From: an uncultured candidate division Zixibacteria bacterium
GTDB taxonomy: Bacteria; Zixibacteria; MSB-5A5; UBA10806
Length of the DNA: 64,000 nucleotides
Reading direction: 5' to 3'
Assembly: GCA_963817915.1 (NCBI GenBank)
Contig: CAWFQL010000009.1
Span: forward strand, 160,001 to 224,000
Each line of letters opens with the position of its first letter. The first letter of the stretch is position 1. A program made the translations under genes and the position numbers. This document shows positions 1,122 to 16,811 of this stretch, one piece after another. Below the pieces are notes generated by a model, which searched no databases, was not told the DNA's origin, and saw only the letters and a list, made by a program, of their open reading frames with translations.

Positions 1122-2333
1122 ATGAATATTCGTTGGCTAAAAAGAACACGGATACTTATCAGGGCCGCCCTTAAGTATTTTATTCATATTGCCGGCTTAT
1201 TTTTTATAAAACCATTTATCAAATCAAAGACCGCGGAGTCTTTCAAGCCTGATGCTAAGTACAGAATTCTATATGTCAATCTCGCATATCGCGGAGATTT
1301 TATATTGAGCTTGCCTGCGATTAGAGCGATAAAGACACATTTCCCAAATTCACATCTAACGGTTTGGCTGCGAGAGTATAATTCACCACTGGCGAAGCTA
1401 GAGGCAACAATAGACGAATCCTTTTCATATGACAATTTTCATGGTCAACCTCTACATGAAATTATTGATCTTTTTTTCCGTAGTAAACATAATGCGTTAT
1501 TGGAAAGATTAAGTAATTTCGATATCTATATAGATGATTCAGGATATGCATTTACTTCAATCGCTGGATATTTGGCTCATATTAAATTCAGAGTAGGCAG
1601 AAATTTTCAGGGATTTGGTTTTTTAAATCATTTTGAACAACCATATGGCACAAATACTCAGTTGATCGAAAGAAGATTAACACTGCTTTCGCCCTTAAAT
1701 ATAAAATTGAAACTAAAAGATATTCAAAAGCCATTTTTTCTAATTGAAGATAAAGCGATATCCCAATGCCAAAGCAAGTATGGGCTTTTAGGGAGCAAAT
1801 ATTATACGGTACAAATGTTCGCTGGCTGGGCGGCCAAAAACTGGGGAATTGACAACTATTTGTATGTCGTGAACGAATTTTCAAAAACCAGCGGATTTAC
1901 ACCAGTTTTTATCGGATCAGAATCTGAACGTGAAATCATTGAAATAGCAATACGAAAAAATAATCTTAATGCCATTAATATTGCGGGCCGTGCCGCCCTT
2001 GATGAGGTCGCCGCGATAATTGCGGGTGCTGAAATTCATTTGGGCGCGGATTCTATTGGAGCTCAATTGGCGACAGCATTAAAGACAAGGAGTCTCGCAA
2101 TCTTCGGGCCCGTGAATCCAAGATTATGCATGTATTTGGGAGATCCGAATTACGGAATATTCAAAAAGACTTCATGTACGCCAAAACCGGATAAATTGTA
2201 TTGTTGTTTTGATGCGGGACGTAGCTGCAAACGGCTATATTGCATGAAAAACCTCAAAAATGAAGACGTATTAAAGGCACTTACCGATATCTGGTCGGGG
2301 GAAAAGCTGCCTTCAGTAATAGAGTTAGATTAA
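1122..2333 (+). CDS. Glycosyltransferase family 9 (LPS heptosyltransferase-like)
   Basis: GDFILSLPAIRAIK N-terminal motif, AKNW, GADSIGAQLA and AIFGP motifs. Confidence 0.88.
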   Translation: MNIRWLKRTRILIRAALKYFIHIAGLFFIKPFIKSKTAESFKPDAKYRILYVNLAYRGDFILSLPAIRAIKTHFPNSHLTVWLREYNSPLAKLEATIDESFSYDNFHGQPLHEIIDLFFRSKHNALLERLSNFDIYIDDSGYAFTSIAGYLAHIKFRVGRNFQGFGFLNHFEQPYGTNTQLIERRLTLLSPLNIKLKLKDIQKPFFLIEDKAISQCQSKYGLLGSKYYTVQMFAGWAAKNWGIDNYLYVVNEFSKTSGFTPVFIGSESEREIIEIAIRKNNLNAINIAGRAALDEVAAIIAGAEIHLGADSIGAQLATALKTRSLAIFGPVNPRLCMYLGDPNYGIFKKTSCTPKPDKLYCCFDAGRSCKRLYCMKNLKNEDVLKALTDIWSGEKLPSVIELD

Positions 2334-2370
2334 AATTGGCCTATTTATGCCAAATTAATCTAAATGCGAT

Positions 2371-2398
2371 TTGACAAACCCAAAAAGATTACTATATT
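2371..2398 (+). promoter_or_regulatory. sigma70 promoter of tRNA-Glu
   Basis: TTGACA-N16-TATATT, 13 nt before the tRNA. Confidence 0.7.
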
Positions 2399-2411
2399 CC
2401 GCCTTGCAGAC

Positions 2412-2485
2412 GTCCCCATCGTCTAGCTGGTCCAGGACACCGCCCTTTCACGGCGATAACAGGGGTTCGAATCCCCTTGGGGACG
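2412..2485 (+). tRNA. tRNA-Glu (TTC), CCA not encoded
   Basis: GTCCCCA/TGGGGAC acceptor stem, CTTTCAC anticodon loop, GGTTCGAATCC T-arm. Confidence 0.97.
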
Positions 2486-2495
2486 CTTTGAATTT

Positions 2496-2538
2496 ATTCC
2501 CGCAAGTTTATAATGGCCTTGCGGGAATTATTGTTTTA
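2496..2538 (+). terminator. Hairpin terminator after tRNA-Glu
   Basis: ATTCCCGCAAG...CTTGCGGGAAT followed by a T-rich tract. Confidence 0.6.
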
Positions 2539-2778
2539 TAAACGCATCGCACATTATAAAATATTTCAATGGTAGATTAATTCATTTTAAATAGTTAGTT
2601 CTATTGTGATTCAACGTCTCCAAGAAGCGCTCAAATTGCGGTGCTATTGAGTGAGAAGATCGGTCGATAAACAATATCCAATTTGGGTGAAAGACTTGCC
2701 GATAGCACGATTTTCCGGGAAATAAGAGTCTTTTACCGACTCGTGACTCCAGTATCTACAATTATATAAAAAAATCTA

Positions 2779-2837
2779 TTGACAATAATTGCGATTTTAT
2801 TATTTTGATAGTGTCGTCACTGGCAGTGGTGACAAGA
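2779..2837 (+). promoter_or_regulatory. Promoter plus palindromic candidate operator of trmB-1
   Basis: TTGACA-N16-TATTTT, then TGTCGTCACTGGCAGTGGTGACA imperfect palindrome just before the RBS. Confidence 0.6.
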
Positions 2838-2853
2838 AGGAGAAAGGATTTTG

Positions 2854-3696
2854 ATGCATCAAGATGATTCCTTAAACCAGCTATTAACCCTTGGATTGAC
2901 TACATACGAGTCAAAAGGATATCTGGCTCTGCTCCAAAAGCAATCTTCAACCGCATCCGAACTCGCTCGACTTTCAGGAATACCTCGAACAAGAATATAT
3001 GATGTCCTGGAACGGTTGACGTTGAATGGAATGTGCGTGGAGTTATTGGGCAAGGAAAAAAAATACCAGGCGGTGGCGCCGGATATCGCGCTTCAAAGAT
3101 TGGTAGAGCATCAAAAAACGGATATTCTATCAAAGGAAACCTTAGCCAAAGCATTAGCCCAAACATTAACAGATCATTTCAAAAAAGGCTCTACCAATAA
3201 TGACCCTTTGGATTATATCGAACTTCTTAGGGATCCGCAGCAAGTGGCCAGGAAGGTCATGCAATTGGTAAGCGAGGCCCAATCGGAAATACTTGCTTTT
3301 GTAAAGCCGCCATTTTCCAATCCAAAGAGAGAATTGGAAAAACAGAACGAGAAATCCATTCAGGCTTCGGCAAGGCATATCGCTATCAGGGCAATCTATG
3401 AAATTCCCAAAGGCGATGAAGAAGCGATCTGGATGCTTGGTCAAATTGAACGATCCGTGGAGTCGGGCGAACAAGCGCGGGTCATCGATAATCTCCCATT
3501 GAAATTGGTAATTGTCGATGAACACAAGGTGGTATTCGCGATGGAGGATTATCTCAAAACCAAAAGCCAGCAAACATCGCTATTAATTGAGCATCACGCA
3601 TTGGCTCAAGGCCTCAAAATCTTGTTCGAAACTTTGTGGGAAAAAGCCTGGGACTATAAAAAAATGGCGGTATATGCCGAATCGAAGCGCTCTTGA
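2854..3696 (+). CDS. TrmB-family transcriptional regulator (paralog 1)
   Basis: LGLTTYESKGY...SGIPRTRIYDVLERL wHTH; PLD-like effector domain ending LPLKLVIVD...FETLW. Confidence 0.92.
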   Translation: MHQDDSLNQLLTLGLTTYESKGYLALLQKQSSTASELARLSGIPRTRIYDVLERLTLNGMCVELLGKEKKYQAVAPDIALQRLVEHQKTDILSKETLAKALAQTLTDHFKKGSTNNDPLDYIELLRDPQQVARKVMQLVSEAQSEILAFVKPPFSNPKRELEKQNEKSIQASARHIAIRAIYEIPKGDEEAIWMLGQIERSVESGEQARVIDNLPLKLVIVDEHKVVFAMEDYLKTKSQQTSLLIEHHALAQGLKILFETLWEKAWDYKKMAVYAESKRS

Positions 3697-3782
3697 AAAA
3701 ATTCTATTTAATATCGAGTGGTCAACGAGAAAAATGGCTCAGCTTTCTCATTGAAGTTATGTAGTAAAGAAAGGGTAGTATT

Positions 3783-5987
3783 ATGAATAAATATTTAAGG
3801 TTGATTCCAATTTTAATATTTGGCTTGAATCTGTCCGCCATCGCTCAGAATGACTATGGGTTCCAGCTGATAGGCAGGGCGCTGCCAGGTGAAGCGTCAG
3901 CCTCACAAGTGATCGACAATAACTGCTATCTTGGTGCCGGGAATTGCCTCCAGATTTATAATATTGCCAATCCTTCGCATCCGATACCATTAGGTCAAAT
4001 TCCGCTTCAAGGACTTGTGGAGGATGTTTCCGTAATAAATAATCTTGCTTATATAGCCAATGGCACAAACGGACTCGTTATCGCCGATATTTCGGTGCCA
4101 TCGGAAATTCAAATTCGGGGCCAGCTGCAATTGACCGATGAGGCCTTCGGTATTCAGATTCAGGGCGATTATGCATTTGTGGCGGGCCTGAGTGCCGGAT
4201 TTGTCGCAATCGATATCTCCGATCCGTCCGCGCCATCACAAGTGGGTTCATTCCCGGTGGATTGGGCCGCTCTGAATGTTGATGTGCTAAATAATATCGC
4301 ATGTGTCGCCAGTGGGTATGGTGGATTATATATTCTCGATATCTCTTCGCCTTCCAACCCCACTCAATTGGGTCTGGTGGATACCCAGGATACTTGGGCG
4401 TATGATGTTAAAATCAATGATAATTATGCTTATATGGCATACTCGCTTGCTTCCGGAGGGGGAGGCTTGAAGGTTATTGATATTTCGAATCCCGCGGTCC
4501 CGGTAGTCCGATCAAACTTGTATATTGAAACCTCGTTGAGACGGATGGATTACAGTTCGGGGTATGTAGTCGCCGCGGGGGAAGACGGCGGATTGTTCGT
4601 AATCGAGGTCGCCAATCCTTACGCCCCGAGAGTTGTCGGCGGTTGGCACTATGGCTATGGGAATAATATCGATTATGCGAATAATCGAATTTATCTATCG
4701 GGCGGTAAAGAAGGATTGTACATTTTCAACGCCGCCAATATGAATTTCCCAAGTCTGCTATCAGCCACTCCAACATACAGCTCCAGCCAGGATGTCACCG
4801 TATCGGGGCAATACGCATATATAGTTGAACAGCCATCGGGATTGAAGGCAATAAATATATCTAATATTAGAATGCCGCTCGTGACCTACAGCAGACAGTT
4901 TTGCTGGGAAAATAATGCATATCAGGGAGTATCGTCCGGCGTCTCGGTAGTGGATAATAAGCTTTATGTCTCGGATTTTGCTGACATGTTGGGCGGACGA
5001 CATGATTTTCGCGCATATGGGTTGGATAACCCCGAACAGCCCGAATCATTGAGCGTTTATGGCAATCTTAATATCGGGGTCAGGGGACATGCTGTTAGAA
5101 ATGACATCGCGTATCTTTCGAATAGCAGCGATCTCAAAATTCTCGATGTCAGGAATGGCAGCAATATGCAATTGCTAAATACATTCAACGGCGGCTGGGA
5201 TTTCGCCTACGGCATGGATCTGGTTGGTAATTACATCTATGTAGGAACAATGGATACCGGGCTCAAGATATTAGATATAACCAATGAAACGCGACCGGAG
5301 ATAGTGGGCTCATTCGATACCAATGGCCAGACATTCACCGCGAAATACCATGACGGATATATTTATTTACCCGATTACGAGCAGGGGCTCCGAATTGTCA
5401 ATGTCGCCAATCCTGCCGCGCCATTTGAGGTCGGTCATTTCTCTACCTACCAAAATTGTGTCGATGTCGCCTTTATTGATACCAGAACAGATTCATATGC
5501 CATCGCCGCCTTTGATGATCAAATAGTGGCGCTGAATATCGCAGACCCATCGAATCCGGTTGAGGTCGGCTATTTTGAGAGCGGCGATCCGCGCAGACTT
5601 TGTACGCGGGGAGATACGATTTTTGTGGCAGATAGAATAGCCGGTTTGTACATATTTCTTTTAGACGTTCAGGTTGGAGTGACGGATGATCAAACCTCAC
5701 CGAAACCGGAATATTTGAATTCATTACGAAATTATCCAAATCCATTTAATCCGCAGACCACAATTTCATTCGATATGCCTGTCGGAAATTATCTAACCGT
5801 AGATATATACGACATACTTGGCCGTCACACGATTCGCCTCCTGGATGGATATACCGAACCGGGCCAGCACAGGATTATATGGGATGGCAAGGATTCACAC
5901 GGGAATCAAGTATCTCAGGGAGTGTTTTTCTATAAACTCTATACCGGAGGTAAGAGCTATACCGGGAAAATGATACTGTTGAAATAG
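3783..5987 (+). CDS. Exported LVIVD-repeat (beta-propeller-like) protein with T9SS/FlgD-Ig-like C-terminal domain
   Basis: Signal peptide; many repeats like AYIANGTNGLVIADISVP; tail NYPNPFNPQTTISF...WDGKD...KMILLK. Confidence 0.88.
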   Translation: MNKYLRLIPILIFGLNLSAIAQNDYGFQLIGRALPGEASASQVIDNNCYLGAGNCLQIYNIANPSHPIPLGQIPLQGLVEDVSVINNLAYIANGTNGLVIADISVPSEIQIRGQLQLTDEAFGIQIQGDYAFVAGLSAGFVAIDISDPSAPSQVGSFPVDWAALNVDVLNNIACVASGYGGLYILDISSPSNPTQLGLVDTQDTWAYDVKINDNYAYMAYSLASGGGGLKVIDISNPAVPVVRSNLYIETSLRRMDYSSGYVVAAGEDGGLFVIEVANPYAPRVVGGWHYGYGNNIDYANNRIYLSGGKEGLYIFNAANMNFPSLLSATPTYSSSQDVTVSGQYAYIVEQPSGLKAINISNIRMPLVTYSRQFCWENNAYQGVSSGVSVVDNKLYVSDFADMLGGRHDFRAYGLDNPEQPESLSVYGNLNIGVRGHAVRNDIAYLSNSSDLKILDVRNGSNMQLLNTFNGGWDFAYGMDLVGNYIYVGTMDTGLKILDITNETRPEIVGSFDTNGQTFTAKYHDGYIYLPDYEQGLRIVNVANPAAPFEVGHFSTYQNCVDVAFIDTRTDSYAIAAFDDQIVALNIADPSNPVEVGYFESGDPRRLCTRGDTIFVADRIAGLYIFLLDVQVGVTDDQTSPKPEYLNSLRNYPNPFNPQTTISFDMPVGNYLTVDIYDILGRHTIRLLDGYTEPGQHRIIWDGKDSHGNQVSQGVFFYKLYTGGKSYTGKMILLK

Positions 5988-6313
5988 AAGGAATGGTGTT
6001 TGCTCAGGCGAGTATTTAATTTCTGCGCATATCCCGAATAATCTTCTGTATTAACTTCTTAAAAGCAAAAAAGAGAATAATTCAGTCAAATGATTTCTCA
6101 AAATAAAATTCAGATTTCCGAAATACCGACAAGGAGGTGCGACGCTATAGATAATCTTTATCCTCGCATATTAGCCAAGAAATGGAAAGTGGAAATCAGG
6201 AAGAGTTAATGAGCTTAGGGGAGCCGTCACAAAGACCGAAATTAAGGCTCCCCGTAAGCCACCCTGACACAACAGGCTAACTTCACATTATATTGTATTG
6301 AAGGATTGATGCA

Positions 6314-9300
6314 ATGAAAAAGATTCTAATTTTTAGCAATATCTGCATAGCGTTGTTTTTGCTATCGGTAGTTTCTCAAGCAGATACGATTCTATCGACG
6401 GATTTTTCCGCGGGTCTGCCGTCAACCTGGACTCTGGTAGACAGCTCCGGTATGAATACCGCGCCTGCCGGACCAGATGGTTTTACCTGGTCAGATCAAA
6501 ACCCAGCCGGAAGGGCGCTCCCTTATACCAACGGGCTGTTTATGCTCTGCGATTCTGATTGGAATAGCAGTGCCACATATCGTGATATGATCATCACTCC
6601 CATCCTGGATTGCAGTAATTACACTGGAGTGACCCTTCAATTCGGAAACAATTTCCGTTCATACGGAGCGTCAAGAGCCGCGGTAGATATCCGAATTGCC
6701 GGCGGTGCCTGGCAAAATGTGGTGACATATTCGGTTACGACTAGTGAAAATACGACCATTAATATATCGTCGTATGCCGATGGTCAGAGCTCCGTTGAAA
6801 TTCGCTTCTTCTACTACGATGCTCTTTACGCGTACTGGTGGGGCGTAGATAACGTCTTAGTCACCGGTACTCCGCCACCGTCTGACGATGATATTTCCGC
6901 GGTTGCAATCGCAAATCCGGCCGGAACGATGTTTGTAAATTCCCAATATACGCCTCAGGTAACGGTCCTCAATGCCGGAACGGCTGCCCAGACATTTGAT
7001 GTAAATTTGGTAGTGACTAATTCCGTTCCAGAGCAGGTTTACAATCAGACTGTAACCGGAGTAACCTTGGATCCGGGTCTTTCGACAACTGTTAGCTTTA
7101 CTCCAAATTTCGCTCCCGCGACCGTAGACAATTATACTTTCACGGCTACTGTTCAAAATCCTGGGGATCAGAATCCGGGCAACGATGTCGTCTCGGCTGT
7201 CCGCAATGCGATCTTACATTATGGCGTTGGTGGCCCGGACGCGTTCGGCAATACCTGGAAAGATAATACTGTGGTTGGAGGACCCACCTTTAGCTACATC
7301 GATATTAGAAGCGGTGGTACTGTTATTGGCAATGGCGACGATACCGCATTTGGACCATTCCCTGTCGGTTTTGATTTCCCATTTTATGATGCGGCCTATA
7401 ACCAATTTTATGTTAATACGAATGGCTTAATTACCATGACCGCCTCTACCAACTCTCGAAATAATTATTGCCCAGTACCGGGTGCGGGAGAGGCCGCTTT
7501 TTGGATTACGCCATTCTGGGATGATTTGAATGTAAGATCGACCGATGGCGGAAATATGTATTATCAATTTTTCGATGCCGCGGTCGATTACGTCGTAATA
7601 CAATGGTATAATTTCAGTATCTATGGAGTTTATGGCGAACCAATGGACGCTGAAGCCATACTTTATGCCGACGGCAAAATTGTATTCCAATACAATCATG
7701 TCAATAATCTTGTCAGAGGACATGGACAATTGGCTACGGTTGGTATTCAGAAGGATGTTACTGACGGTTTGGCATATTTGTGCAATGACGTTCCAGTCGG
7801 TAATGAGTTGTTTTCGGGCCTCGCTATCGGTTGGTTCCCTCCGGTTATTAATCATGATATCGGAGTGACTACGATAGATTCGCCTGTTGCTCCTCTGGTT
7901 AAGACAAATGCTATCATGAATTTTGCCGCGACTTTCACGAATTATGGCATAAATCCGGAAACATTCGATGTCTATTTGGCGGTCAAAAATTCCGCGCTTG
8001 AGACTGTCTACGCAGATACGGTAGGGCTGACCATCGCAGTAGGCGGATCAGCTCAGGCCACTTTCACAGGCTGGGCAGCAACGATACCTGACAACTATTC
8101 ATTTACAGTCACAAACGGGCTTGTTGGAGATCAAAATGCCAACAACGATATGATCGCGCGTTCAATAAAGGCAGTGGATATGATTTCCATGCCTGTGAAT
8201 CAGGATTTTGAAGCAGAATTTCCGCCCGCGGGATGGACCATTCTCGACCGAAGCGGAACCAGCAGCTGGACCTGGACCAATAGCATGTATCGCAGTGCGA
8301 CTCACTCCGCCCAGGTATCATATGATTGGCTTCATAATACCGATGATTGGCTAGTACTGGCTCCGATTGACATGTCAGCGGGGACTAATATCAAATGGGC
8401 GTACTTTGAAGCTCAAGAACAATGGGCAACGCATGGCTTGAGACATTCGATGTACGTTTCAAATAGTATTTATTTTGATCCAGCTACCGCCACGCCGATT
8501 GCAATTCAAACTCCCGCGGATCACTCTATCGCCGGATTCGCTGGTGATCCGGTCGAATTCGATCTGAGCGGCTATGCAGGCAGCGCGAATGTCTGGTTGG
8601 CATTTCGTCAAGAGAACGCTCAAGGTCCCAATACCGAGTACTGGTGGATCGATGATGTGAGCGTTCTGAATGGTCTTAATGCCGATGCCGGACTTTATTC
8701 CATAGATTCACCGATTCGGGGAATTGTTCCTGGGTGCGATGCGCCTGTTAACGTGACAATCAAAAACTTTGGCCAGCAAATCCAGTCATTCGACGTGAGA
8801 GTCACTATCGATGGAGCAGCTTCAGGCAGAGTTTACGATAATGTGGTTCAGGCAGCCAACATCCCGCCCGTTACAGTACAAAGTATTCAATTCCCGAATT
8901 TTGTTAACCCAGCGGCAGATAGATATCTTTTAAGCGCAACCACAATGCTGACCGGAGATCAAAATACATCCAATGACGCGATGAGTGACAGCTTCTATGC
9001 GTCGACAGTCATATTGCATACCTGGGATGATAACTCCGCTGAAGGCTCATCCACTCCATATCCATTCAGCAATTCAATGATTGCGACCAGGTTTACTCCA
9101 TCAGATACCAATTTCACGATTTTGGGCGGCAATATTTATGTGAACCAATATTCTCCTGATGGCAATGATTACGCCGAATGGGAATGGGTAAAGATATGTC
9201 CCGAAGTCGCCGGCGCTCCCGATATCGATAACGCCTTTGGCACGATCAATAATCTCGGTACATACTTTGTCCCAGTCTTAATACCTGTGGATATACCTGA

Positions 9301-9820
9301 TACGGTGGTAAGTGATTACCACGGCCAAATTTGGATTGTCGCAAAATATTGGGATGGCGCGAACGATTTTCTATCGGTTGCTACCGATATCAACAAGCCA
9401 GATGGAAATTCATTTTTCAATCAAAATGATATTCCCGCGATATGGCGCCAGGTCACCGAAAGCGACTATATGATGCGAATCGAGCTAGAGTATCAAGCAT
9501 GCGGTTCGGTAGGAGCTTGCGACTATATTGACGGCGATGTCAATGGAAGCAATTCCTTCAATGGTCTCGATGTGACCTATAGTGTCAACTATTTCAAGGG
9601 TGGTGCGGCTCCGCTTTATTCTTGCGAATGCACACTGGGCAATACCTGGTTTGTATCCGGTGATGTCAACGGAAGCTGTTCCTTTAACGGCTTAGACGTA
9701 ACCTACATGGTTAATTATTTCAAGGGAGGAGCGGGTCCGATTGCATGTCCTGACTGCCCTCCAGCAAGATTGGGTCCGGCGGTTCAGCCGAAAATCGCGC
9801 CTGTCAACCAGTCCAACTAA
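6314..9820 (+). CDS. Large exported multidomain protein (adhesin-like, three CARDB-like Ig repeats, nidogen-like segment, C-terminal dockerin-like duplex)
   Basis: Signal peptide; three repeats ending GDQNxxND; DFEAEFPPAGWT; two GDVNGSxSFNGLDVTYxVNYFKGG motifs. Confidence 0.8.
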   Translation: MKKILIFSNICIALFLLSVVSQADTILSTDFSAGLPSTWTLVDSSGMNTAPAGPDGFTWSDQNPAGRALPYTNGLFMLCDSDWNSSATYRDMIITPILDCSNYTGVTLQFGNNFRSYGASRAAVDIRIAGGAWQNVVTYSVTTSENTTINISSYADGQSSVEIRFFYYDALYAYWWGVDNVLVTGTPPPSDDDISAVAIANPAGTMFVNSQYTPQVTVLNAGTAAQTFDVNLVVTNSVPEQVYNQTVTGVTLDPGLSTTVSFTPNFAPATVDNYTFTATVQNPGDQNPGNDVVSAVRNAILHYGVGGPDAFGNTWKDNTVVGGPTFSYIDIRSGGTVIGNGDDTAFGPFPVGFDFPFYDAAYNQFYVNTNGLITMTASTNSRNNYCPVPGAGEAAFWITPFWDDLNVRSTDGGNMYYQFFDAAVDYVVIQWYNFSIYGVYGEPMDAEAILYADGKIVFQYNHVNNLVRGHGQLATVGIQKDVTDGLAYLCNDVPVGNELFSGLAIGWFPPVINHDIGVTTIDSPVAPLVKTNAIMNFAATFTNYGINPETFDVYLAVKNSALETVYADTVGLTIAVGGSAQATFTGWAATIPDNYSFTVTNGLVGDQNANNDMIARSIKAVDMISMPVNQDFEAEFPPAGWTILDRSGTSSWTWTNSMYRSATHSAQVSYDWLHNTDDWLVLAPIDMSAGTNIKWAYFEAQEQWATHGLRHSMYVSNSIYFDPATATPIAIQTPADHSIAGFAGDPVEFDLSGYAGSANVWLAFRQENAQGPNTEYWWIDDVSVLNGLNADAGLYSIDSPIRGIVPGCDAPVNVTIKNFGQQIQSFDVRVTIDGAASGRVYDNVVQAANIPPVTVQSIQFPNFVNPAADRYLLSATTMLTGDQNTSNDAMSDSFYASTVILHTWDDNSAEGSSTPYPFSNSMIATRFTPSDTNFTILGGNIYVNQYSPDGNDYAEWEWVKICPEVAGAPDIDNAFGTINNLGTYFVPVLIPVDIPDTVVSDYHGQIWIVAKYWDGANDFLSVATDINKPDGNSFFNQNDIPAIWRQVTESDYMMRIELEYQACGSVGACDYIDGDVNGSNSFNGLDVTYSVNYFKGGAAPLYSCECTLGNTWFVSGDVNGSCSFNGLDVTYMVNYFKGGAGPIACPDCPPARLGPAVQPKIAPVNQSN

Positions 9821-9851
9821 TGCCTAATATCAAATAGTATTCGCTATGGGG

Positions 9852-9888
9852 AAGAGGGTCATCCGGAAACGGGTGGCCCTTTTTCTTT
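9852..9888 (+). terminator. Rho-independent terminator (copy 1)
   Basis: GGGTCATCCG-GAAA-CGGGTGGCCC plus T tract. Confidence 0.85.
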
Positions 9889-9994
9889 AAGGCTGGTCAA
9901 CTATTGAGATCAGTAGATCAGTCAGGACAGTATCATCTGATAATGCGGTGAGAAGGCAATTCCTTCCCTTTAAAACACTATTCTGCACTTTTAA

Positions 9995-10023
9995 TTGATT
10001 TTTGTTCAAACTGCATGTATAAT
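9995..10023 (+). promoter_or_regulatory. sigma70 promoter of trmB-2
   Basis: TTGATT-N17-TATAAT; GGAGGT RBS ahead of the TTG start. Confidence 0.6.
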
Positions 10024-10057
10024 GTCGCCCTGAATTGGATTTAGGGAGGTAATACAG

Positions 10058-10894
10058 TTGCGCGAAATAAATGAACACAAATATCTGGATGCCCTGATAG
10101 AAATAGGTCTGAATTTGCGTGAAGCGAGGATATATTTAAGCTTGCTCACCCGCCATGATTTTTCGGTTACTGAGATAGCAAAATCAGCCAAGCTCTCAAG
10201 ACCGGCCGCATATGAGCTTTTGAATAAGATGGTAATGCTGGGGATATGCAAGGAAAAGCCTGGCAAGGTCAAACGATTCATGGCGATATCTCCTGGTGTA
10301 GCATTGCCTAATCTTATCGAGAACGAGGCAGAGGGGCTTAAAACATTATTGGCCAACAGGCAAAACAAAATTGGAGCCCTAATTCCAGTCCTTGAAGACC
10401 TCTTCAAACAAAGCAGGGGTCAGGAAGACCCCTTGGATTATTTCGAGGTGTTGCGTGATAGAAAGCAAATAGCGCAAGGATTCCTTGAATTAGAGAGACA
10501 GGTCACCGAAGAGATGCAGGCCTTTGTCAAACCGCCTTATTCTCTTTCCTTTGAAGATAACGTGGAGGAATCGAATCTCCTCAAAAGAGGCGTAAAAGTG
10601 CGGGGGTTATACGAGTACGACGGAACACATGAGGAAATGGTAAAACTGATTGAGCCAACATATAAGTTGGGGGAGGATGCCAGAGTCATAAGATCACTTC
10701 CGACAAAGCTCGCCATATTCGATTGTAAAATTACCCTTCTTGCTCTTAACGATCCTATCGCAGGAAAAGCATCAATCACGACATTGCGCATTTATCATAA
10801 AGATTTTTCGATATTATTGAAGGAGGCATTTGAGTCTTATTGGGCGAAAGCTATACCTTTCGCCAAGTTTAAAGATGACCCATCGATTCTATAA
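10058..10894 (+). CDS. TrmB-family transcriptional regulator (paralog 2)
   Basis: IGLNLREARIYL wHTH; DPLDY, FVKPP, LPTKLAIFD and FESYW motifs matching paralog 1. Confidence 0.92.
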   Translation: MREINEHKYLDALIEIGLNLREARIYLSLLTRHDFSVTEIAKSAKLSRPAAYELLNKMVMLGICKEKPGKVKRFMAISPGVALPNLIENEAEGLKTLLANRQNKIGALIPVLEDLFKQSRGQEDPLDYFEVLRDRKQIAQGFLELERQVTEEMQAFVKPPYSLSFEDNVEESNLLKRGVKVRGLYEYDGTHEEMVKLIEPTYKLGEDARVIRSLPTKLAIFDCKITLLALNDPIAGKASITTLRIYHKDFSILLKEAFESYWAKAIPFAKFKDDPSIL

Positions 10895-11170
10895 TACTCC
10901 CCAAAATGCGCAACATATTGCCTCTAACATCTGGATGATATCATTATAAGTCACCCACTTATCGTCCTTCCAGAAAAGCTTCGAGCGAGTAAGTCAAACT
11001 TTAACTGTCCCATAGACTTTGTATTTTGTGCTTTAAAGCGTATGGCATAACTTATTACAATATTGCGCCTTAAAGAAATAAAGACTGATCTCTTAGTTCC
11101 GATAAAATAATATATATGATTGTTGCCTTCTACATGGTAATAAAAATATTTAGCCAATCACTTTTTTTGC

Positions 11171-11225
11171 TTGACAAGAAATGAATATTGTGTAAATTAT
11201 TGTTGTTATCGCTCTATTGACAACA
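11171..11225 (+). promoter_or_regulatory. Promoter plus palindromic candidate operator
   Basis: TTGACA-N16-TAAATT, then TGTTGTTA-N9-TGACAACA. Confidence 0.6.
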
Positions 11226-11435
11226 GAATTGAACCAGAATTTAGCCCCCGCCTTTTTTGTGGGAAAATAAAGGGAGTCGGAATTAAAATAATAGATAAGG
11301 AGATCGAGAAATAATTATTATTACGGTCTATTTTCAATTCTACGAAGAATCTTAAATTAATCAAGAAATCAGGACTTCAGTTTTTGTTGGTAGTTTTTTT
11401 CTTTCTTCACAACTAAAAATTAAATGGAGAAGCTT

Positions 11436-14400
11436 ATGAAGAAACTTCTATTGGTGTTATCCGCGATTGTATTTTTGATGTGTTGGAGCATGGCTACTGC
11501 AGGGAAGGTTGTTCAAAGCTCTCCCACCACAGCATTATCGCAAAGTCCGACGCAACAAGTCAATATCGCGAATAAAAACAAAAAAATATCTATCAATAAT
11601 AGCAAATCTAAATTAACTTTTGACGGAGAAAAATCCCGGACCGCGACTGAAAGGTCTGCGCCTGCATCGAATCCTGAAAAGAAGATTGCGCCGTTTGTAA
11701 AATCAAATTCCAACGAAATTCCCACTTTTACTATATCCAATACAGCCCCCTTCGACAGAATGAGAGGTGTCGATTCAAGAAAGGTTGATAGGTGTATCCC
11801 TGCCCCGCCGCCGGATCCGAATATAATCCTGCAAGGAGGCGACAACATGTATGACGCCACGGTCATTTCTTCAATTCCGTATGTCGATAGCGGCAGTACA
11901 GCCGGCTATACTCATGATTTCTCATTAGACTGCGCGGATGCCTATAATTACGCTCCCGACGTTTTCTACTCTTATACTCCTGCATCAGACGGCTGGATAA
12001 CCGTTGCAACGTTTAGTCACGTATATTTTAATTCTATGCTGGGTATCCTCGATGATAGCGGCACTCAGCTTGCATGCAGCGACAATTACTGGACCATGCA
12101 GCCCCAAATAGCCAATTTTCGTGTTACGGCAGGCGCTACTTATTATATAGTCGTCTCCGGTTTCGAAGGCAGTTATGGTCCCTATACACTCTTAGTTAAC
12201 GGAAGTCCTAATTGCGCATTCACCATTCCCGAGCCAAATACTCCGGAAAACGAACCCGATTGTTATGACGATTTTATTGACGACACTAATGGCGGCTGTA
12301 ATTCCACTCCCAATGTATTCAGCACTGTCAGTTCGGGCGAAACCATCGCGGGGAAGGCAGGCACTTATCTAATCAACGGCATAGTTGAGGCTCGCGACAC
12401 CGATTGGTATACTCTTACTCTTGATGCTCCGAAAGTGGTACACATTACTGGTATGGCCGAGTTTCCATTGTTGATCGGGCTACTTGTGCCACCCTGTCCA
12501 GGCCTTCCTTACTATTTCGGAACCGCCGGCCCTTGTACAGAGCTTAACATAAATTCTACTACCCTTGACCCCGGTGAATATTGGATCGTTGCCTTACCTT
12601 CGGTTTTCTCGGGCGTTACATGTGGCTCAGATTACTACTTTACTGTTACAGTTGAAGATCCTCCGGCAGCGCCGGCAAACGACTTATGCGAAAATGCGAC
12701 GCCTATTACTGGTCCTTATCCGCAAATTGTCAATGGTACTACCAAAGGCGCCACCGCTGATTGCCCCGATTACCTCGGGTATAATGCGGCTTGGTACGCG
12801 ATTAATCTTCCGTATGAGGTAAATTTATTATCAATTAATTTCTGTCCTACCGCGGATCAAATCAGAGGTTTTGGTTATGCCTTTTTAAACGACTGTAATA
12901 GTTGCGATTCATACAATATATTTTATTGGACATTTCCGCTATGCGATAACTTGCAGATTCAGCCTGAACTTAAGCAGGAGATAGCCGGTCCCACGACCAT
13001 ATACTATCCGCTCGATCTGGCAGAACCAATGGATTATAGTTTTATAATAGATGTTCAGGAAATTATTCCTCCGCCAAACGATAATTGCGTTGACGTCACG
13101 CCGGTTCCACTCGAACTGGGAGTGCCTCTGCAATTCACGGGTGACAATACGGGCTCCACAGTTGATTGCCAAATGCATTGGGACAAAGAGTCCTGGGTGG
13201 CATTCACAACTACAGAATTCATGAACATTACTGTCGATTTATGCGGCACCAACCCTTACTTCGACAATATTTATATAATTCTTGAAACAAACTGCCCATG
13301 TGATCAAAACACCCTATATGCAAACAGTTGGTCACGAGATTTGTGCGATTACAATTGGTCTTCGACATGGCTGACCGTACCACCGGGAACGTATTATTAT
13401 CCGATCTACCAGTGGTTTGATGCTGAGGGACCATACGTACTTAATATTAATAGTGAAGCCTGCGCTCCGCCACCTGCTAATGACATCTGCGCTGATGCCG
13501 AAGCCATCGGTGAAGTCGTAAGTCAACCCTTTTCGACGATTGGCGCTACCTACGACGGTTCCAGCTCCTGCATTTTCTCACCAGACATTTGGTATGTTTA
13601 CAACGCAACTGCGACAGCTCCAGTGACTGTCAACCTTTGCGGCTCGTCACTTGATACTAAGTTGGCCATTTACGAGGGCTCAAGCTGTCCGGTCGCGCCC
13701 GATCCTCCTGCTTCTGTACCACTACAGGGCGGAGAAGATATTGCCAACGCAACTTTCATCTATGACCCACTCCCCGTGTCCTACACCGGAACAACAACAG
13801 GCTACATCAATAATCACGTTTCGGGATGCGGATTTGAAGGTAATGATGTAATATATTCTTACTTACCTCTGGAAGATGGCACCATAGATGTTGATATGTG
13901 CGGAACCAGCTTAGACACATATATTCCGGCTCTTGTGATTTTAGATGATGCCGCAACAGAAATCGCCTGCGCCGGCGATGGTTGCGGCCTTACCGGTTCG
14001 CCAAAACTCACAGGTGTTCCCGTGGAATCCGGTAGAATGTACTATGTAGTGATCACCGGCTGGAACAACAATGAAGGCGGCGATTATATAGTGCACATCT
14101 CTAATTCTACATTCACTCTGCTGGAATGCAATGACGACTTCTGCGACTTTCAATCTCAAATTACTTTTGATGCCAATGCCGGTACTCAGTATCTGATCCA
14201 GGTAGGCGGCTATTGGCAAGACGTTGGCGAAGGGGTCATTTCAATCAGCAGAGCAGGCGGCTGCGCCTACGTACCTGGTGATGCCAATAACAGCAACTCC
14301 TTCAACGGTCTCGATGTCACGTACAGTGTCAACTACTTCAAGGGGGGAGCAGCCCCATCATACTCCTGCGAATGTCCGCCGCCTAATAGCTGGTTCGTCG

Positions 14401-14573
14401 CGGGTGATGTCAACGGATCATGCTCGTTTAACGGTCTCGATGTTACTTACATGGTTAATTATTTCAAAGGTGGAGCAGCCCCGATACCATGCGCGGATTG
14501 TGCTCCCGCCGGACTGGCGCCGGCTTCACCGGCAATTCCACCGATAAATTTGACCGAACCAAAAACCTACTAA
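11436..14573 (+). CDS. Large exported Cys-rich protein with PPC-like beta-sandwich repeats and C-terminal dockerin-like duplex
   Basis: GGAG RBS and MKKLLLV signal peptide; repeated PxNDxC and LQGG(D/E) modules; tail matches the 6314 protein. Confidence 0.8.
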   Translation: MKKLLLVLSAIVFLMCWSMATAGKVVQSSPTTALSQSPTQQVNIANKNKKISINNSKSKLTFDGEKSRTATERSAPASNPEKKIAPFVKSNSNEIPTFTISNTAPFDRMRGVDSRKVDRCIPAPPPDPNIILQGGDNMYDATVISSIPYVDSGSTAGYTHDFSLDCADAYNYAPDVFYSYTPASDGWITVATFSHVYFNSMLGILDDSGTQLACSDNYWTMQPQIANFRVTAGATYYIVVSGFEGSYGPYTLLVNGSPNCAFTIPEPNTPENEPDCYDDFIDDTNGGCNSTPNVFSTVSSGETIAGKAGTYLINGIVEARDTDWYTLTLDAPKVVHITGMAEFPLLIGLLVPPCPGLPYYFGTAGPCTELNINSTTLDPGEYWIVALPSVFSGVTCGSDYYFTVTVEDPPAAPANDLCENATPITGPYPQIVNGTTKGATADCPDYLGYNAAWYAINLPYEVNLLSINFCPTADQIRGFGYAFLNDCNSCDSYNIFYWTFPLCDNLQIQPELKQEIAGPTTIYYPLDLAEPMDYSFIIDVQEIIPPPNDNCVDVTPVPLELGVPLQFTGDNTGSTVDCQMHWDKESWVAFTTTEFMNITVDLCGTNPYFDNIYIILETNCPCDQNTLYANSWSRDLCDYNWSSTWLTVPPGTYYYPIYQWFDAEGPYVLNINSEACAPPPANDICADAEAIGEVVSQPFSTIGATYDGSSSCIFSPDIWYVYNATATAPVTVNLCGSSLDTKLAIYEGSSCPVAPDPPASVPLQGGEDIANATFIYDPLPVSYTGTTTGYINNHVSGCGFEGNDVIYSYLPLEDGTIDVDMCGTSLDTYIPALVILDDAATEIACAGDGCGLTGSPKLTGVPVESGRMYYVVITGWNNNEGGDYIVHISNSTFTLLECNDDFCDFQSQITFDANAGTQYLIQVGGYWQDVGEGVISISRAGGCAYVPGDANNSNSFNGLDVTYSVNYFKGGAAPSYSCECPPPNSWFVAGDVNGSCSFNGLDVTYMVNYFKGGAAPIPCADCAPAGLAPASPAIPPINLTEPKTY

Positions 14574-14601
14574 AATCTAATTAAGGAAATCAACGATGGG
14601 G

Positions 14602-14639
14602 AAGAGGGCCATTCGGAAACGGATGGCCTTTTTCTTTTT
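14602..14639 (+). terminator. Rho-independent terminator (copy 2)
   Basis: GGGCCATTCG-GAAA-CGGATGGCCT plus T tract. Confidence 0.85.
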
Positions 14640-14757
14640 ACTCTTGACTTCAATCAACTCGGCGAAATATGCTTATATCATGCGCAGCTCGATGACGACA
14701 TAATAGCGTTCAACAATTGTACTTAGTGAATGATGGAATTTTGTTCGGGAGGTGATT

Positions 14758-16060
14758 ATGTGTTGGAGAATTCCTTTGGCAGTATTTTTCATGCTGACAA
14801 TTTTTTCATGCGACAAGCTTAAACCTTCAAACTCGATAAAGAATGATCCGCCTGATGCTCCGTCCAATCCTGTTCCGGCAGATGGCGCGGTAAATCAGGA
14901 GATATCAGCCAATATAACCTGGGATTGGAATGATGTAGACGGCGATTCGCTTACGTTCGATGTCTACTTCGATGAAGCACAAGAACCCGCGCTCATCGAA
15001 TCGGATCGTCGAGAAAGCTGGTATGAACCGGAAAGTCTGGAATATGATCATACTTATTATTGGAAGGTAGTTGCAGATGACGGACATGGAAATCAGACTG
15101 CCGGGCCGATATGGCATTTTTCCACTCGAGCCCTGAGATCATTTGATGTTCTCGGCCACTATAATAACTCCGAGCACGGTCCATACTACGAAATTACCGG
15201 CAATATCCAATCCAGCTACCTTTATGTGACCAATAGACATTCGTCCGGAACACAGAGACTCGTCGTTAATTCTCAATATCGCCGATATCAATAATGTCAG
15301 CGTTGCGGGGTACATTAAAGGAGCATTGTTTGGCAATCAATTTGGGCCTGGTTATATTTTTAGCGTAGGCCGGCTTGATAGCGGCTATAAGCTTAGAGCC
15401 TATTCATTGGGTGATCCCACTAACCCTAATGAGGAATTTAGATTTGATGTTACCAATATCCAGGATTTGGCTGTAGTCAATGACTACGTCTATGTATATA
15501 AGAACGGTTCCGCAGATGGTCAGTCCAATGGTGTGATTACTGTCCATGACATGACCATAGTTGATACAGTAATCACTCAAAGTGCGTTGAGCTGGGGACG
15601 ACTAAGGGCATTCGGGAATCTATTATTGATTGCGGAAAATACGGTAATTGAGATTCTCGATATCACCAATCCGGCCGCGCCGCAGGTTTCGGTAATGGCC
15701 CCCGTACCTGATCAGTGTTTTGACGCCGCTATTTCCGGAACTACGTTGTATATTGCCCTGCATAATACCGGAATTGCGATCGTGGATATTTCAAGCCTGC
15801 CATCGACAGTCCCATTAGGTTCAATACCGACAGTAAATCAATCGACTGACGTACTTTTAGCAAATCAAGGAGTTCTTTATGTCGCCGATAATAATCTCTT
15901 GATCGCCTATAATATTTCCGTTCCAGGCAGTCCTTATGAGATGGCCCGATTTGAAGCCCCAGCGAAAATCATATCATTGAACTATATTCAGGTACTCATG
16001 ATTACCTATTCTGATGGGGCCGGGGTTAGTGGAATTATGGCGCTTGATATGCAACTCTAA
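14758..16060 (+). CDS. Lipoprotein with Fn3-like domain and LVIVD repeats; one +1 frameshift near 15250
   Basis: IFSC lipobox; NPVPADGA...YYWKVVADD...GPIWHF domain; the +1 frame continues SLILNIADINNV into ORF 15326-16060. Confidence 0.75.
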
Positions 16061-16124
16061 TAAATCCTTGAAACGGTTGACATTGCTGTTTTGAATAATT
16101 GATAATGATTATTAATTTTTCGAC

Positions 16125-16152
16125 TTGACAGTCTGATGATATGACGTATATT
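16125..16152 (+). promoter_or_regulatory. atp operon promoter
   Basis: TTGACA-N16-TATATT; overlaps the ORF-track ATG at 16141, favouring a GTG start at 16177. Confidence 0.7.
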
Positions 16153-16176
16153 CGGGCTTGTTTTTGGTACGGAATT

Positions 16177-16407
16177 GTGGCGAAGAAAAAAGATGACACC
16201 CAAAGGAGTTACAGACAGGTCGCCCTCGCTACCACAATCCCGCTCATAATGTTGGCGGCGCCTGGCGTAGGTTATTTTATAGGACGATATCTCGACAAAG
16301 TTGTTCAAAACCACCAATGTCATGACAGTAATTTTTCTTTTACTTGGCGTGGCAGCGGGGGGGTCGAAACCTACAAAATAATCAAAGAGCTTAATCGAGA
16401 GGATTGA
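16177..16407 (+). CDS. atpZ: AtpZ/AtpI-family (ATPase gene 1) protein with a compensated internal frameshift
   Basis: GYFIGRYLDK motif; the shifted frame gives the expected second helix LFKTTNVMTVIFLLLGVAAGG. Confidence 0.75.
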   Translation: MAKKKDDTQRSYRQVALATTIPLIMLAAPGVGYFIGRYLDKVVQNHQCHDSNFSFTWRGSGGVETYKIIKELNRED

Positions 16408-16811
16408 ATGCGAACTTGGATCTTAATTTCGTTGATAGAATAATAAAAGCGACATTGATAGTAGCGGCAATTCTGTTTCCATTTCTGGCGCTATATATTG
16501 CCATGAACTTCGCTCTTTCAGTGCTATTTGGCGCGGTCTGGGGATGCCTGAATCTTCTGGCAATTAAGATTATTATCGTAAGCTTATTGCCCGGAGAGAA
16601 GAAGAATACGACACTCGGAATAATTATTTTATTCGTAAAATTGCCGGTCTTATATGGTATTGGATATTTATTGGTGACCTGGAAATATCTGTCAATTTAC
16701 GGATTGCTCTGGGGCTTTTCGGGAATATTGATCGTGGCATTATTGAAAGTGCTCGGTCGAATCTATCTGGGACTTGATAATCGGGTTAAACCGGAGGGCT
16801 CCAAGGCTTGA
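16404..16811 (+). CDS. atpI: ATP synthase subunit I-like membrane protein
   Basis: Four hydrophobic helices, position directly before atpB. Confidence 0.75.
   Translation: MNANLDLNFVDRIIKATLIVAAILFPFLALYIAMNFALSVLFGAVWGCLNLLAIKIIIVSLLPGEKKNTTLGIIILFVKLPVLYGIGYLLVTWKYLSIYGLLWGFSGILIVALLKVLGRIYLGLDNRVKPEGSKA

Follow-up and report, generated by a model that had tools for sequence, protein, structure and literature searches.

In a 3.33-Mb genome of an uncultured Zixibacteria bacterium (G000), two genes for TrmB-type regulators stand ahead of genes for large exported proteins, which raises the question of what such regulators control and how each of them finds its own DNA site. The stretch analysed, referred to as the window, spans 64,000 nucleotides (G000:C9:160001-224000), and the locus coordinates below are counted from its first letter. 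A sequence-only reading had proposed one ligand-regulated surface complex, in which the two regulators govern four exported proteins that dock on a scaffold encoded elsewhere. The present analysis arrives at another arrangement: the region is two separate cassettes followed by an unrelated, broken lipoprotein gene, and, with a probability of roughly 0.7, these are autorepressed cargo cassettes in which the length of the repressor's antiparallel coiled-coil linker likely sets the distance between the operator half-sites. This answer is drawn from four regularities in the compared sequences, namely the gene link between regulator and cargo, the layout of promoter and palindrome, half-sites that vary together with the recognition helix, and palindrome spans that vary together with the length of the linker.

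Cassette 1 comprises trmB-1 (start at 2851 or 2854, end at 3696; 281 residues), the gene of a 734-residue LVIVD protein with a signal peptide and a type IX secretion system (T9SS) tail of type A (cargo 1, 3783-5987), and the gene of an adhesin-like, 1168-residue protein with a dockerin-like tail (cargo 2, 6314-9820), and ends at a terminator-like hairpin (9847-9888). Cassette 2 comprises trmB-2 (10058-10894) and the gene of a Cys-rich protein (cargo 3, 11424-14573; 1045 or 1049 residues, 39 Cys) that likewise carries a dockerin-like tail, and ends at an intrinsic terminator-like hairpin (14597-14638), all on the forward strand. The sequence-only reading had placed these genes and terminators, as well as the tRNA-Glu gene and the atp operon on either side, in the same order.

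The link between regulator and exported protein is conserved. In a set of 46 distinct genes or fragments from 16 relatives, drawn from 40 loci, the next gene is co-oriented in all 45 homologues with downstream DNA and is tailed in 30 of them (T9SS in 19, dockerin-like in 11), and a tailed gene lies within three downstream in 36 of the 45, as against a background in this genome of 120 tailed next genes behind 2679 untailed ones (4.5%). The linkage of TrmB to dockerin genes in relatives, which the earlier reading had anticipated, is therefore present, but as part of a link to secreted cargo in general and not to dockerins in particular. The unit of trmB-1, LVIVD-T9SS gene and 1168-residue dockerin gene also occurs in the relatives G008, G012 and G018 in other genomic settings; LVIVD orthologues of 51-55% identity follow trmB-1 in three relatives, cassette 1 is found without cassette 2 in three, and G017 holds five tandem units of regulator, T9SS gene and dockerin gene. 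Common tailed genes might adjoin regulators by chance in an ordinary gene cluster, given that 221 of 2936 open reading frames (ORFs) in the genome are tailed and that paralogues of the LVIVD and 1168-residue-like proteins are numerous; this explanation is extremely improbable in view of the 30 of 45 tailed next genes, the three-gene unit kept in different settings, and the five tandem units.

A second set, consisting of 78 metagenome loci and three further genome loci, gave a similar picture at its low-GC loci, where 53 of 54 next genes are co-oriented, 26 of the 34 complete ones are tailed, and 47 of 54 have a signal peptide by a crude rule; at high-GC loci, the next gene is co-oriented in four of eight cases and tailed in none of seven. 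The closest orthologues of trmB-1 (68-69% identical) belong to Zixibacteria, in genomes of the same family. A single-protein search found the regulator family in 17 of 41 genomes, and a profile search in 19 of 285, this one included (8 of the 13 genomes of the family, 6 of the 10 of its sister family, and 4 of 261 others); Ignavibacteriota, Cloacimonadota and WOR-3, which appear in atlas clusters, are a lead only as further homes. In G017, where 22 matches to trmB-1 include some that are two pieces of one gene, tandem arrays of units, each with its own predicted operator, occupy C8:223000-255000 (L053-L055) and C10:399000-436000 (L043-L045). At L063:10172-11406 (G019:C24), a trmB-like gene is halved onto opposite strands with tailed cargo behind each half, reflecting either an inversion or an assembly artefact.

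Both regulators are members of the TrmB superfamily. The Pfam TrmB winged helix-turn-helix (PF01978) matches trmB-1 with 66.5 bits (E 2e-18) and trmB-2 with 48.1 bits (E 1e-12) at a cut-off of 25.6, and these two, which are 34% identical, are the genome's only TrmB genes above it. The trmB-1 product combines a winged helix-turn-helix (recognition helix IPRTRIY), a 42-residue linker, and a C-terminal domain with a P-x-K-x4-D motif; that of trmB-2 has a 46-residue linker and the recognition helix LSRPAAY. A 34-sequence profile of the family covers positions 1-286 of 298 in TrmBL2 (E 5e-28), so that the TrmBL2 plan of winged helix-turn-helix, dimerization helix and single C-terminal domain is found at full length, and the same profile matches TrmB (3qph) at positions 6-145 only. 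The TrmBL2 equivalog NF041141 scores just 55 and 37.7 bits against a cut-off of 530, and the NCBIfam models of TrmB and TrmBL1 also score far below their cut-offs; by sequence, the regulators are thus neither sugar-sensing TrmB proteins nor TrmBL2 equivalogs, and the automatic label "sugar-sensing regulator" that one source gives to many of them has been corrected here. PMC4158304 places six of seven sugar contacts of TrmB in a second C-terminal subdomain (residues 305-326) without counterpart in TrmBL2. Because the regulators (278-281 residues) match TrmBL2 over its full length and end before that subdomain, ligand sensing in the manner of TrmB, as the sequence-only reading assumed, is not transferable to them. 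A dedicated dockerin complex of four exported proteins under sugar-type sensing, as in archaeal TrmB, would agree with the Pfam matches, with the carbohydrate-binding-module (CBM)-like folds in the cargo, and with the cohesin proteins encoded elsewhere; nevertheless, with the sugar-contacting subdomain absent, the fourth gene broken and unlinked in G008, terminators between the cassettes, and cassette 1 standing alone in three relatives, it has very little likelihood.

Private palindromes at the cassette promoters supply the candidate binding sites. Cassette 1 opens with a sigma70-type promoter (TTGACA-16-TATTTT, 2779-2806, forward strand), and directly behind its -10 box lies the predicted TrmB-1 operator, a palindrome of 23 base pairs (bp) (TGTCGTCACTGGCAGTGGTGACA, 2812-2834) with a CACT-N3-AGTG core. 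It is kept in G008, G012, G018 and L087 and is the sole intergenic match in the genome to the orthologue consensus at two or fewer mismatches, no second intergenic site that would point to a wider TrmB-1 regulon being found there. In cassette 2, a promoter-like site with a palindrome (TTGATT-17-TATAAT, 9995-10046, forward strand) precedes trmB-2, the 19-bp palindrome (10028-10046) being weaker and its half-site not that expected for the helix, and a TTGACA promoter with a palindrome (11171-11225, forward strand) precedes the gene of the 1049-residue protein. The latter palindrome, TGTTGTTA-N9-TGACAACA (25 bp, 11201-11225), has the half-site type seen with RP-x-x-Y helices and a span equal to the 25-bp median of the 46-residue linker class; because both fit the trmB-2 product, it is taken as the predicted TrmB-2 operator. 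Across the family, CTTGACA is present in 39 of 48 upstream regions, in which a palindrome with triplet-periodic arms sits directly behind the -10 box, and the mean inverted-repeat score there is 9.4, while a control window upstream of -35 averages 6.9. Sorted by eye, the half-sites group by recognition helix across genomes: RGRV goes with ACCACCAC, RAR or RAK with ACTACT, RPN or RTN with TGTTGT, and RTK-I with ACCCC. Upstream of five short-linker members (L132, L133, L137, L139 and L159), two short operators seem to lie in tandem, an arrangement compatible, by analogy, with a tetramer that binds like TrmBL2.

Between the wing and the C-terminal domain lies a linker of 30 to 151 residues, whose lengths form series: 38-60-82-104-126 in 45 of 118 sequences, 46-68 in 28 and 30-52-74 in 9. 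Repeats of 22 or 11 residues in tandem make up the long linkers; at a lag of 22, L102 shows a self-identity of 0.53. Palindrome span follows linker length with a rho of 0.70 in the genome rows (n = 42, including trmB-2 paired with its cargo site after the fact) and 0.76 in the 25 rows that beat shuffles; in a separate set treated with the same algorithm (74 genes, of which 19 without a TTGAC promoter and 3 duplicates were dropped), rho is 0.55 (n = 52), and in the control window upstream of -35 it is 0.01 (n = 80). Phylogenetic contrasts on a linker-free tree gave r of 0.45 and 0.61 with a slope of 0.47 bp per residue, none of 2000 permutations reaching as high and the sign being the same in 29 and 28 of 37 contrasts; the tree was a quick FastTree with a midpoint root, in which 25 of 83 inner branches are poorly supported. 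A second method, based on a half-site matrix (86 rows, after 8 of the 52 were dropped for high GC or a weak promoter), gave median spans of 22 bp at 38 residues, 32 at 60, 41.5 at 82, 57 at 104 and 65 at 126. The co-variation in these sequences amounts to about 0.45-0.5 bp per residue. An alpha helix rises 1.5 Å per residue and DNA 3.4 Å per base pair, and for an antiparallel coiled coil these values predict 0.44 bp per residue, so that 22 residues correspond to about 10 bp. Individual proteins fall into line: among three proteins with the identical helix VPRGRVY, a 52-residue linker goes with 29 bp twice and a 74-residue linker with 39 bp. A paralogue with a 151-residue linker has no promoter of its own; its operon starts two genes further upstream, and there a TTGACA box is followed by half-sites of the type predicted from the protein's helix, spaced 67 bp apart. 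A hand-anchored measure in the RP/RT-N-Y group, which gave a slope of 0.53, was set aside, with 3 of its 14 rows over-extended. The position of the palindrome centre does not track linker length (rho 0.26, p 0.10).

Palindromes within a transcribed leader could be RNA hairpins, or promoter elements unrelated to any protein, and their length trend could come from shared ancestry, since kin share traits, the tree is weak at the inner branches noted above, and the test failed in one clade. Such an origin is nonetheless quite improbable, given that the correlation survives the contrasts with a slope near the ratio of helix rise to base-pair rise, that long linkers are found on separate branches, that the half-sites of long sites are separated by 27-49 nucleotides of AT-rich, unpaired spacer, and that half-sites go with the recognition helix.

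Several results weigh against the ruler, and against autorepression of the cassettes more broadly. Palindromes beat shuffles at p ≤ 0.05 in just 25 of 42 and 24 of 52 rows, the triplet periodicity of the arms makes span calls noisy, and the half-site matrix lowers rho to 0.50 (n = 42) and to 0.39 (n = 44), leaving outliers such as 64 bp at 38 residues and 16 bp at 60. Half-site spacing follows coiled-coil length as a co-variation only, and it failed to do so in the distant RTK-helix clade, where a simple ACCC..GGGT measure gave a rho of -0.22 (n = 12), that is, no correlation, and where several 42-residue members have apparently two short operators in tandem. The site of the 151-residue paralogue was found after three intergenic regions had been checked, and its helix group without that point predicts 56 bp, not 67. 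At the locus itself, trmB-2 is without the usual site before its own gene, its pairing with the cargo site having been made after that site was seen. Moreover, many linker steps are of 4-14 residues (42, 46, 52, 53, 60), so that whole-turn steps fit the long forms and not all change. Linkers of same-helix paralogues differ in 8 of 10 within-genome pairs and in 413 of 599 between-genome pairs (Fisher p 0.73), and without an excess within genomes, selection against cross-talk is unsupported. The 4.5% background for tailed next genes was taken from one genome only. Finally, DNA binding by TrmBL2 is non-specific and tetrameric (PMC4877046); the private palindromes argue for specific binding by the present proteins, unlike TrmBL2.

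In the autorepression mechanism that these data suggest, a regulator dimer would bind at its cassette's start region and act as a repressor, repression being proposed because the predicted site overlaps that region. By analogy with the TrmB and TrmBL2 structures, the dimer would form an antiparallel coiled coil with one winged helix-turn-helix head at either end. Phe81 of the TrmB coiled coil pairs with Ile91', i.e., the helices are antiparallel (PMC4158304), and the TrmBL2 helix puts the two heads on adjacent major grooves (PMC4877046). Each additional 22 residues (~33 Å) would add one turn of DNA, thereby keeping both heads on one helix face, so that the recognition helix would read sequence and the coiled coil distance. 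A bacterial transcription factor family with two independent specificity axes, a recognition-helix code and a telescoping ruler of 22-residue repeats serving operators of about 17-67 bp, is a moderately probable generalization; if true, one genome could accommodate well above a dozen surface-protein cassettes, each with a switch of its own, and the regulators would be a natural parts list for length-programmed repressors.

Release would probably come from a small-molecule effector in a conserved, probably non-catalytic pocket around P-x-K-x4-D, and probably not from a sugar bound in TrmB fashion. Within the C-terminal domain, P216 is conserved in 117 of 118 sequences, K218 in 111, D223 in 117, E146 in 109, T242 in 108 and H248 in 104, and Tyr50 is invariant (118 of 118); the motif presumably resembles the H-x-K-x4-D of phospholipase D minus its histidine. 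The same operators and ruler might instead serve regulators with no effector, or activating ones, i.e., constitutive autorepressors for dosage or for noisy on/off switching of mobile cassettes. TrmBL2, the closest solved relative, is described in PMC4158304 as having no effector-binding part, and the cargo is so mixed (propellers, a beta-helix, a TonB receptor, an S8 peptidase) that no single signal suggests itself. This alternative is nevertheless unlikely, because the conserved C-terminal residues look like a maintained pocket and because a site downstream of the -10 box is the repressing position in TrmBL1/Tgr (PMC4158304). Once derepressed under the autorepressor mechanism, the cargo would be exported, T9SS-tailed members being anchored directly and dockerin-tailed members docking on the conserved cohesin protein of the order.

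Known systems share parts of this design. TrmBL2 of Thermococcales (PDB 5BPD, 5BOX, 5BQT) has the same three parts and length class and matches the profile at full length; however, it is a conserved, abundant and largely non-specific chromatin protein of 264 residues, whereas the present proteins are bacterial and local and occur in multiple copies, having private palindromes and linkers of 30-151 residues. TrmB of Pyrococcus furiosus and Thermococcus litoralis (PDB 3QPH) is a local repressor, as predicted here, with a coiled-coil dimer, and its site, TACT-N3-AGTA (PMC4158304), resembles the CACT-N3-AGTG core of the TrmB-1 operator. In contrast to TrmB (~340 residues), the second C-terminal subdomain and, with it, the sugar site are absent here, and the cargo is a secreted surface protein instead of an ATP-binding cassette transporter. 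In BusR (GntR family), a coiled coil rules a bipartite operator, and changes of +5 and -10 bp abolished binding (PMC8517857, as far as accessible); this source describes a single ruler, fixed at 22 bp and belonging to a tetramer that has an RCK_C sensor, and no natural length series, whereas the ruler here appears, from co-variation only, to be lengthened by tandem repeats over spans of about 17 to 67 bp. In type IC HsdS, the length of the DNA spacer depends on how many tetrapeptide repeats the antiparallel helical spacer contains, two versus three repeats giving 6 versus 7 bp (cited in PMC10030836), with steps of 4 residues for each base pair in a range of 5-8 bp; HsdS is a restriction specificity subunit, in contrast to the transcription factor family here, with predicted steps of up to 22 residues per DNA turn. 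Known protein rulers for DNA site spacing are thus fixed (BusR) or move in 1-bp steps (HsdS), and a literature search, with most subscription papers outside its reach, found no natural regulator family whose ruler is extended by whole helical turns with a matching operator, nor, under the same limit, any description linking TrmB or dockerins to Zixibacteria or TrmB to type IX secretion. As the slope is close to helix rise over base-pair rise, the model is directly testable and would offer a simple route to orthogonal repressors, as well as a way to address, through its regulators, the large surface repertoire of T9SS and dockerin proteins in an uncultured phylum.

The tails of the cargo are genome-wide tags and not special to the locus, as follows from the 221 tailed ORFs: profiles found 64 dockerin-like and 163 T9SS-type ORFs, and single-sequence searches 63 and 152 matches. 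The dockerin tails of the sequence-only reading hold as duplicated, Cys-braced, dockerin-like tails, but at 18.8 and 15.9 bits they stay under the PF00404 cut-off of 22.9; a related tail at C11:104757 scores 38.6 bits. The hidden Markov model search of the genome that the earlier reading had suggested revealed, besides many further tail copies, cohesins at C18:30286-32400 (45 bits, three stretches) and C18:8220-10424 (26.9 bits; cut-off 24.1). The cohesin-bearing proteins carry T9SS tails and are encoded outside the locus, a single copy of one cohesin-dockerin-T9SS protein occurs in 21 of 24 genomes from the order, and a candidate scaffold encoded elsewhere does therefore exist, docking being predicted. 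No cohesin was found in the first cargo gene among the 40 proteins scanned (of 45 next genes). The type A export route of T9SS is represented both in cargo 1, by its signal peptide and C-terminal domain, and elsewhere in the genome, by T9SS genes (SprA_N at 115 bits; six PorV matches, each above cut-off). A PorV-like match at G000:C9:137769-138506 has four in-frame stops and is possibly a broken gene. Compared with type I dockerin-cohesin and T9SS type A systems, the locus and its genome share the duplicated dockerin-like tail, cohesin proteins, T9SS tails, SprA and PorV, and differ in the Cys-braced tails below cut-off, the apparently non-catalytic cargo, and the T9SS-tailed candidate scaffold; cellulosome dockerins sit on polysaccharide-degrading enzymes, whereas the two dockerin proteins here match no catalytic family.

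The cargo of the two cassettes looks adhesive rather than catalytic. Domain searches revealed no catalytic family, and the models of the two dockerin proteins hold sandwich domains only, in agreement with the earlier impression that the exported proteins lack catalytic motifs. The 734-residue protein matches LVIVD (E 3e-55), and its tail reaches 30.4 bits for TIGR04183 (cut-off 23), which bears out the T9SS-like tail of the sequence-only reading. In the predicted model of the 1168-residue protein (mean predicted local distance difference test score, pLDDT, 65), residues 24-186 align with 4itc (Z 13.0, root-mean-square deviation 3.0, 139 aligned), residues 190-300 with 3idu (Z 13.3, root-mean-square deviation 1.8, 101 aligned), and residues 625-788 with 1pmj (Z 10.2); a Foldseek search with the whole model was uninformative. 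By model and domain matches, the protein looks like a series of a cleaved-adhesin/MAM-like sandwich, CARDB immunoglobulin (Ig) domains, a NIDO-like region, a CBM-like sandwich and the Cys-braced tail, and a homologue carries PF06119, which is taken to be NIDO. The 1045-residue model (pLDDT 78) shows a disordered N-terminal stalk, tandem beta-sandwich modules and the dockerin-like tail; Foldseek with the whole model gave weak matches to CUB-like and ColG collagen-binding domains (template modelling score <0.4), and homologues, which stand behind trmB genes in many relatives, carry PF23759 and PF04151, presumably a T9SS-associated galactose-binding-like domain and PPC. Architectures vary among the 40 cargo proteins scanned: most are propellers or sandwiches, and a TonB receptor, an S8 peptidase and an aspartyl protease occur once each. 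Cargo at L037 and L050 (1898-4903) bears an IPTL-CTERM tail, a third sorting signal on similar bodies, and 1019-residue cargo genes follow the regulator at L037 and L039.

A conserved structured element of about 90 nucleotides lies between regulator and cargo at five loci in four genomes (L037:5197-5287, L039, L050, L058 and L068), with an outer stem CTTGACG/YGTCAAG, a small hairpin, a second stem and AACCC conserved in a loop. It has no Rfam match, covariation is slight in the five sequences, and it may be a cis-regulatory RNA or a processing site that has so far gone undescribed; Rfam searches of the loci of eight relatives returned nothing. At the present locus, a strong GC-rich hairpin without a T-run (6213-6259), likewise without an Rfam match, lies between the LVIVD gene and the gene of the 1168-residue protein and may stabilize or process the transcript. 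The dockerin-like tails of the 1168- and 1049-residue proteins are near copies of each other, as are the terminators behind them (9847-9888 and 14597-14638), which suggests duplication of a 3' module of tail and terminator between cargo genes 2 and 3; no further copies of the hairpins occur elsewhere in the genome at six or fewer mismatches.

Beyond the second terminator lies the lipoprotein gene with Ig-like and LVIVD parts (14752-16060, forward strand), which had been counted as an intact fourth member. An additional base near 15252, either real or an assembly error, splits it into one ORF at 14752-15294 and another at 15326-16060. An intact orthologue of 431 residues (66-70% identical) lies elsewhere in the G008 genome, with no trmB match in the surrounding 19.5 kb; hence, the gene is a neighbour and not part of the system. 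The terminators that divide the cassettes and the broken, unrelated fourth gene speak against a single complex of all exported proteins. The atp operon begins at 16141. On the other side, the tRNA-Glu gene (2412-2486, forward strand), the sole Rfam match over 2300-16500, is context only. Integration at this tRNA gene was rejected, as no attachment repeat was seen, that is, no copy of the tRNA-Glu 3' end near the cluster. Upstream of it (86-2333) lie genes for an S-adenosylmethionine-dependent methyltransferase and a GT9 heptosyltransferase-like protein, which are ordinary envelope genes.

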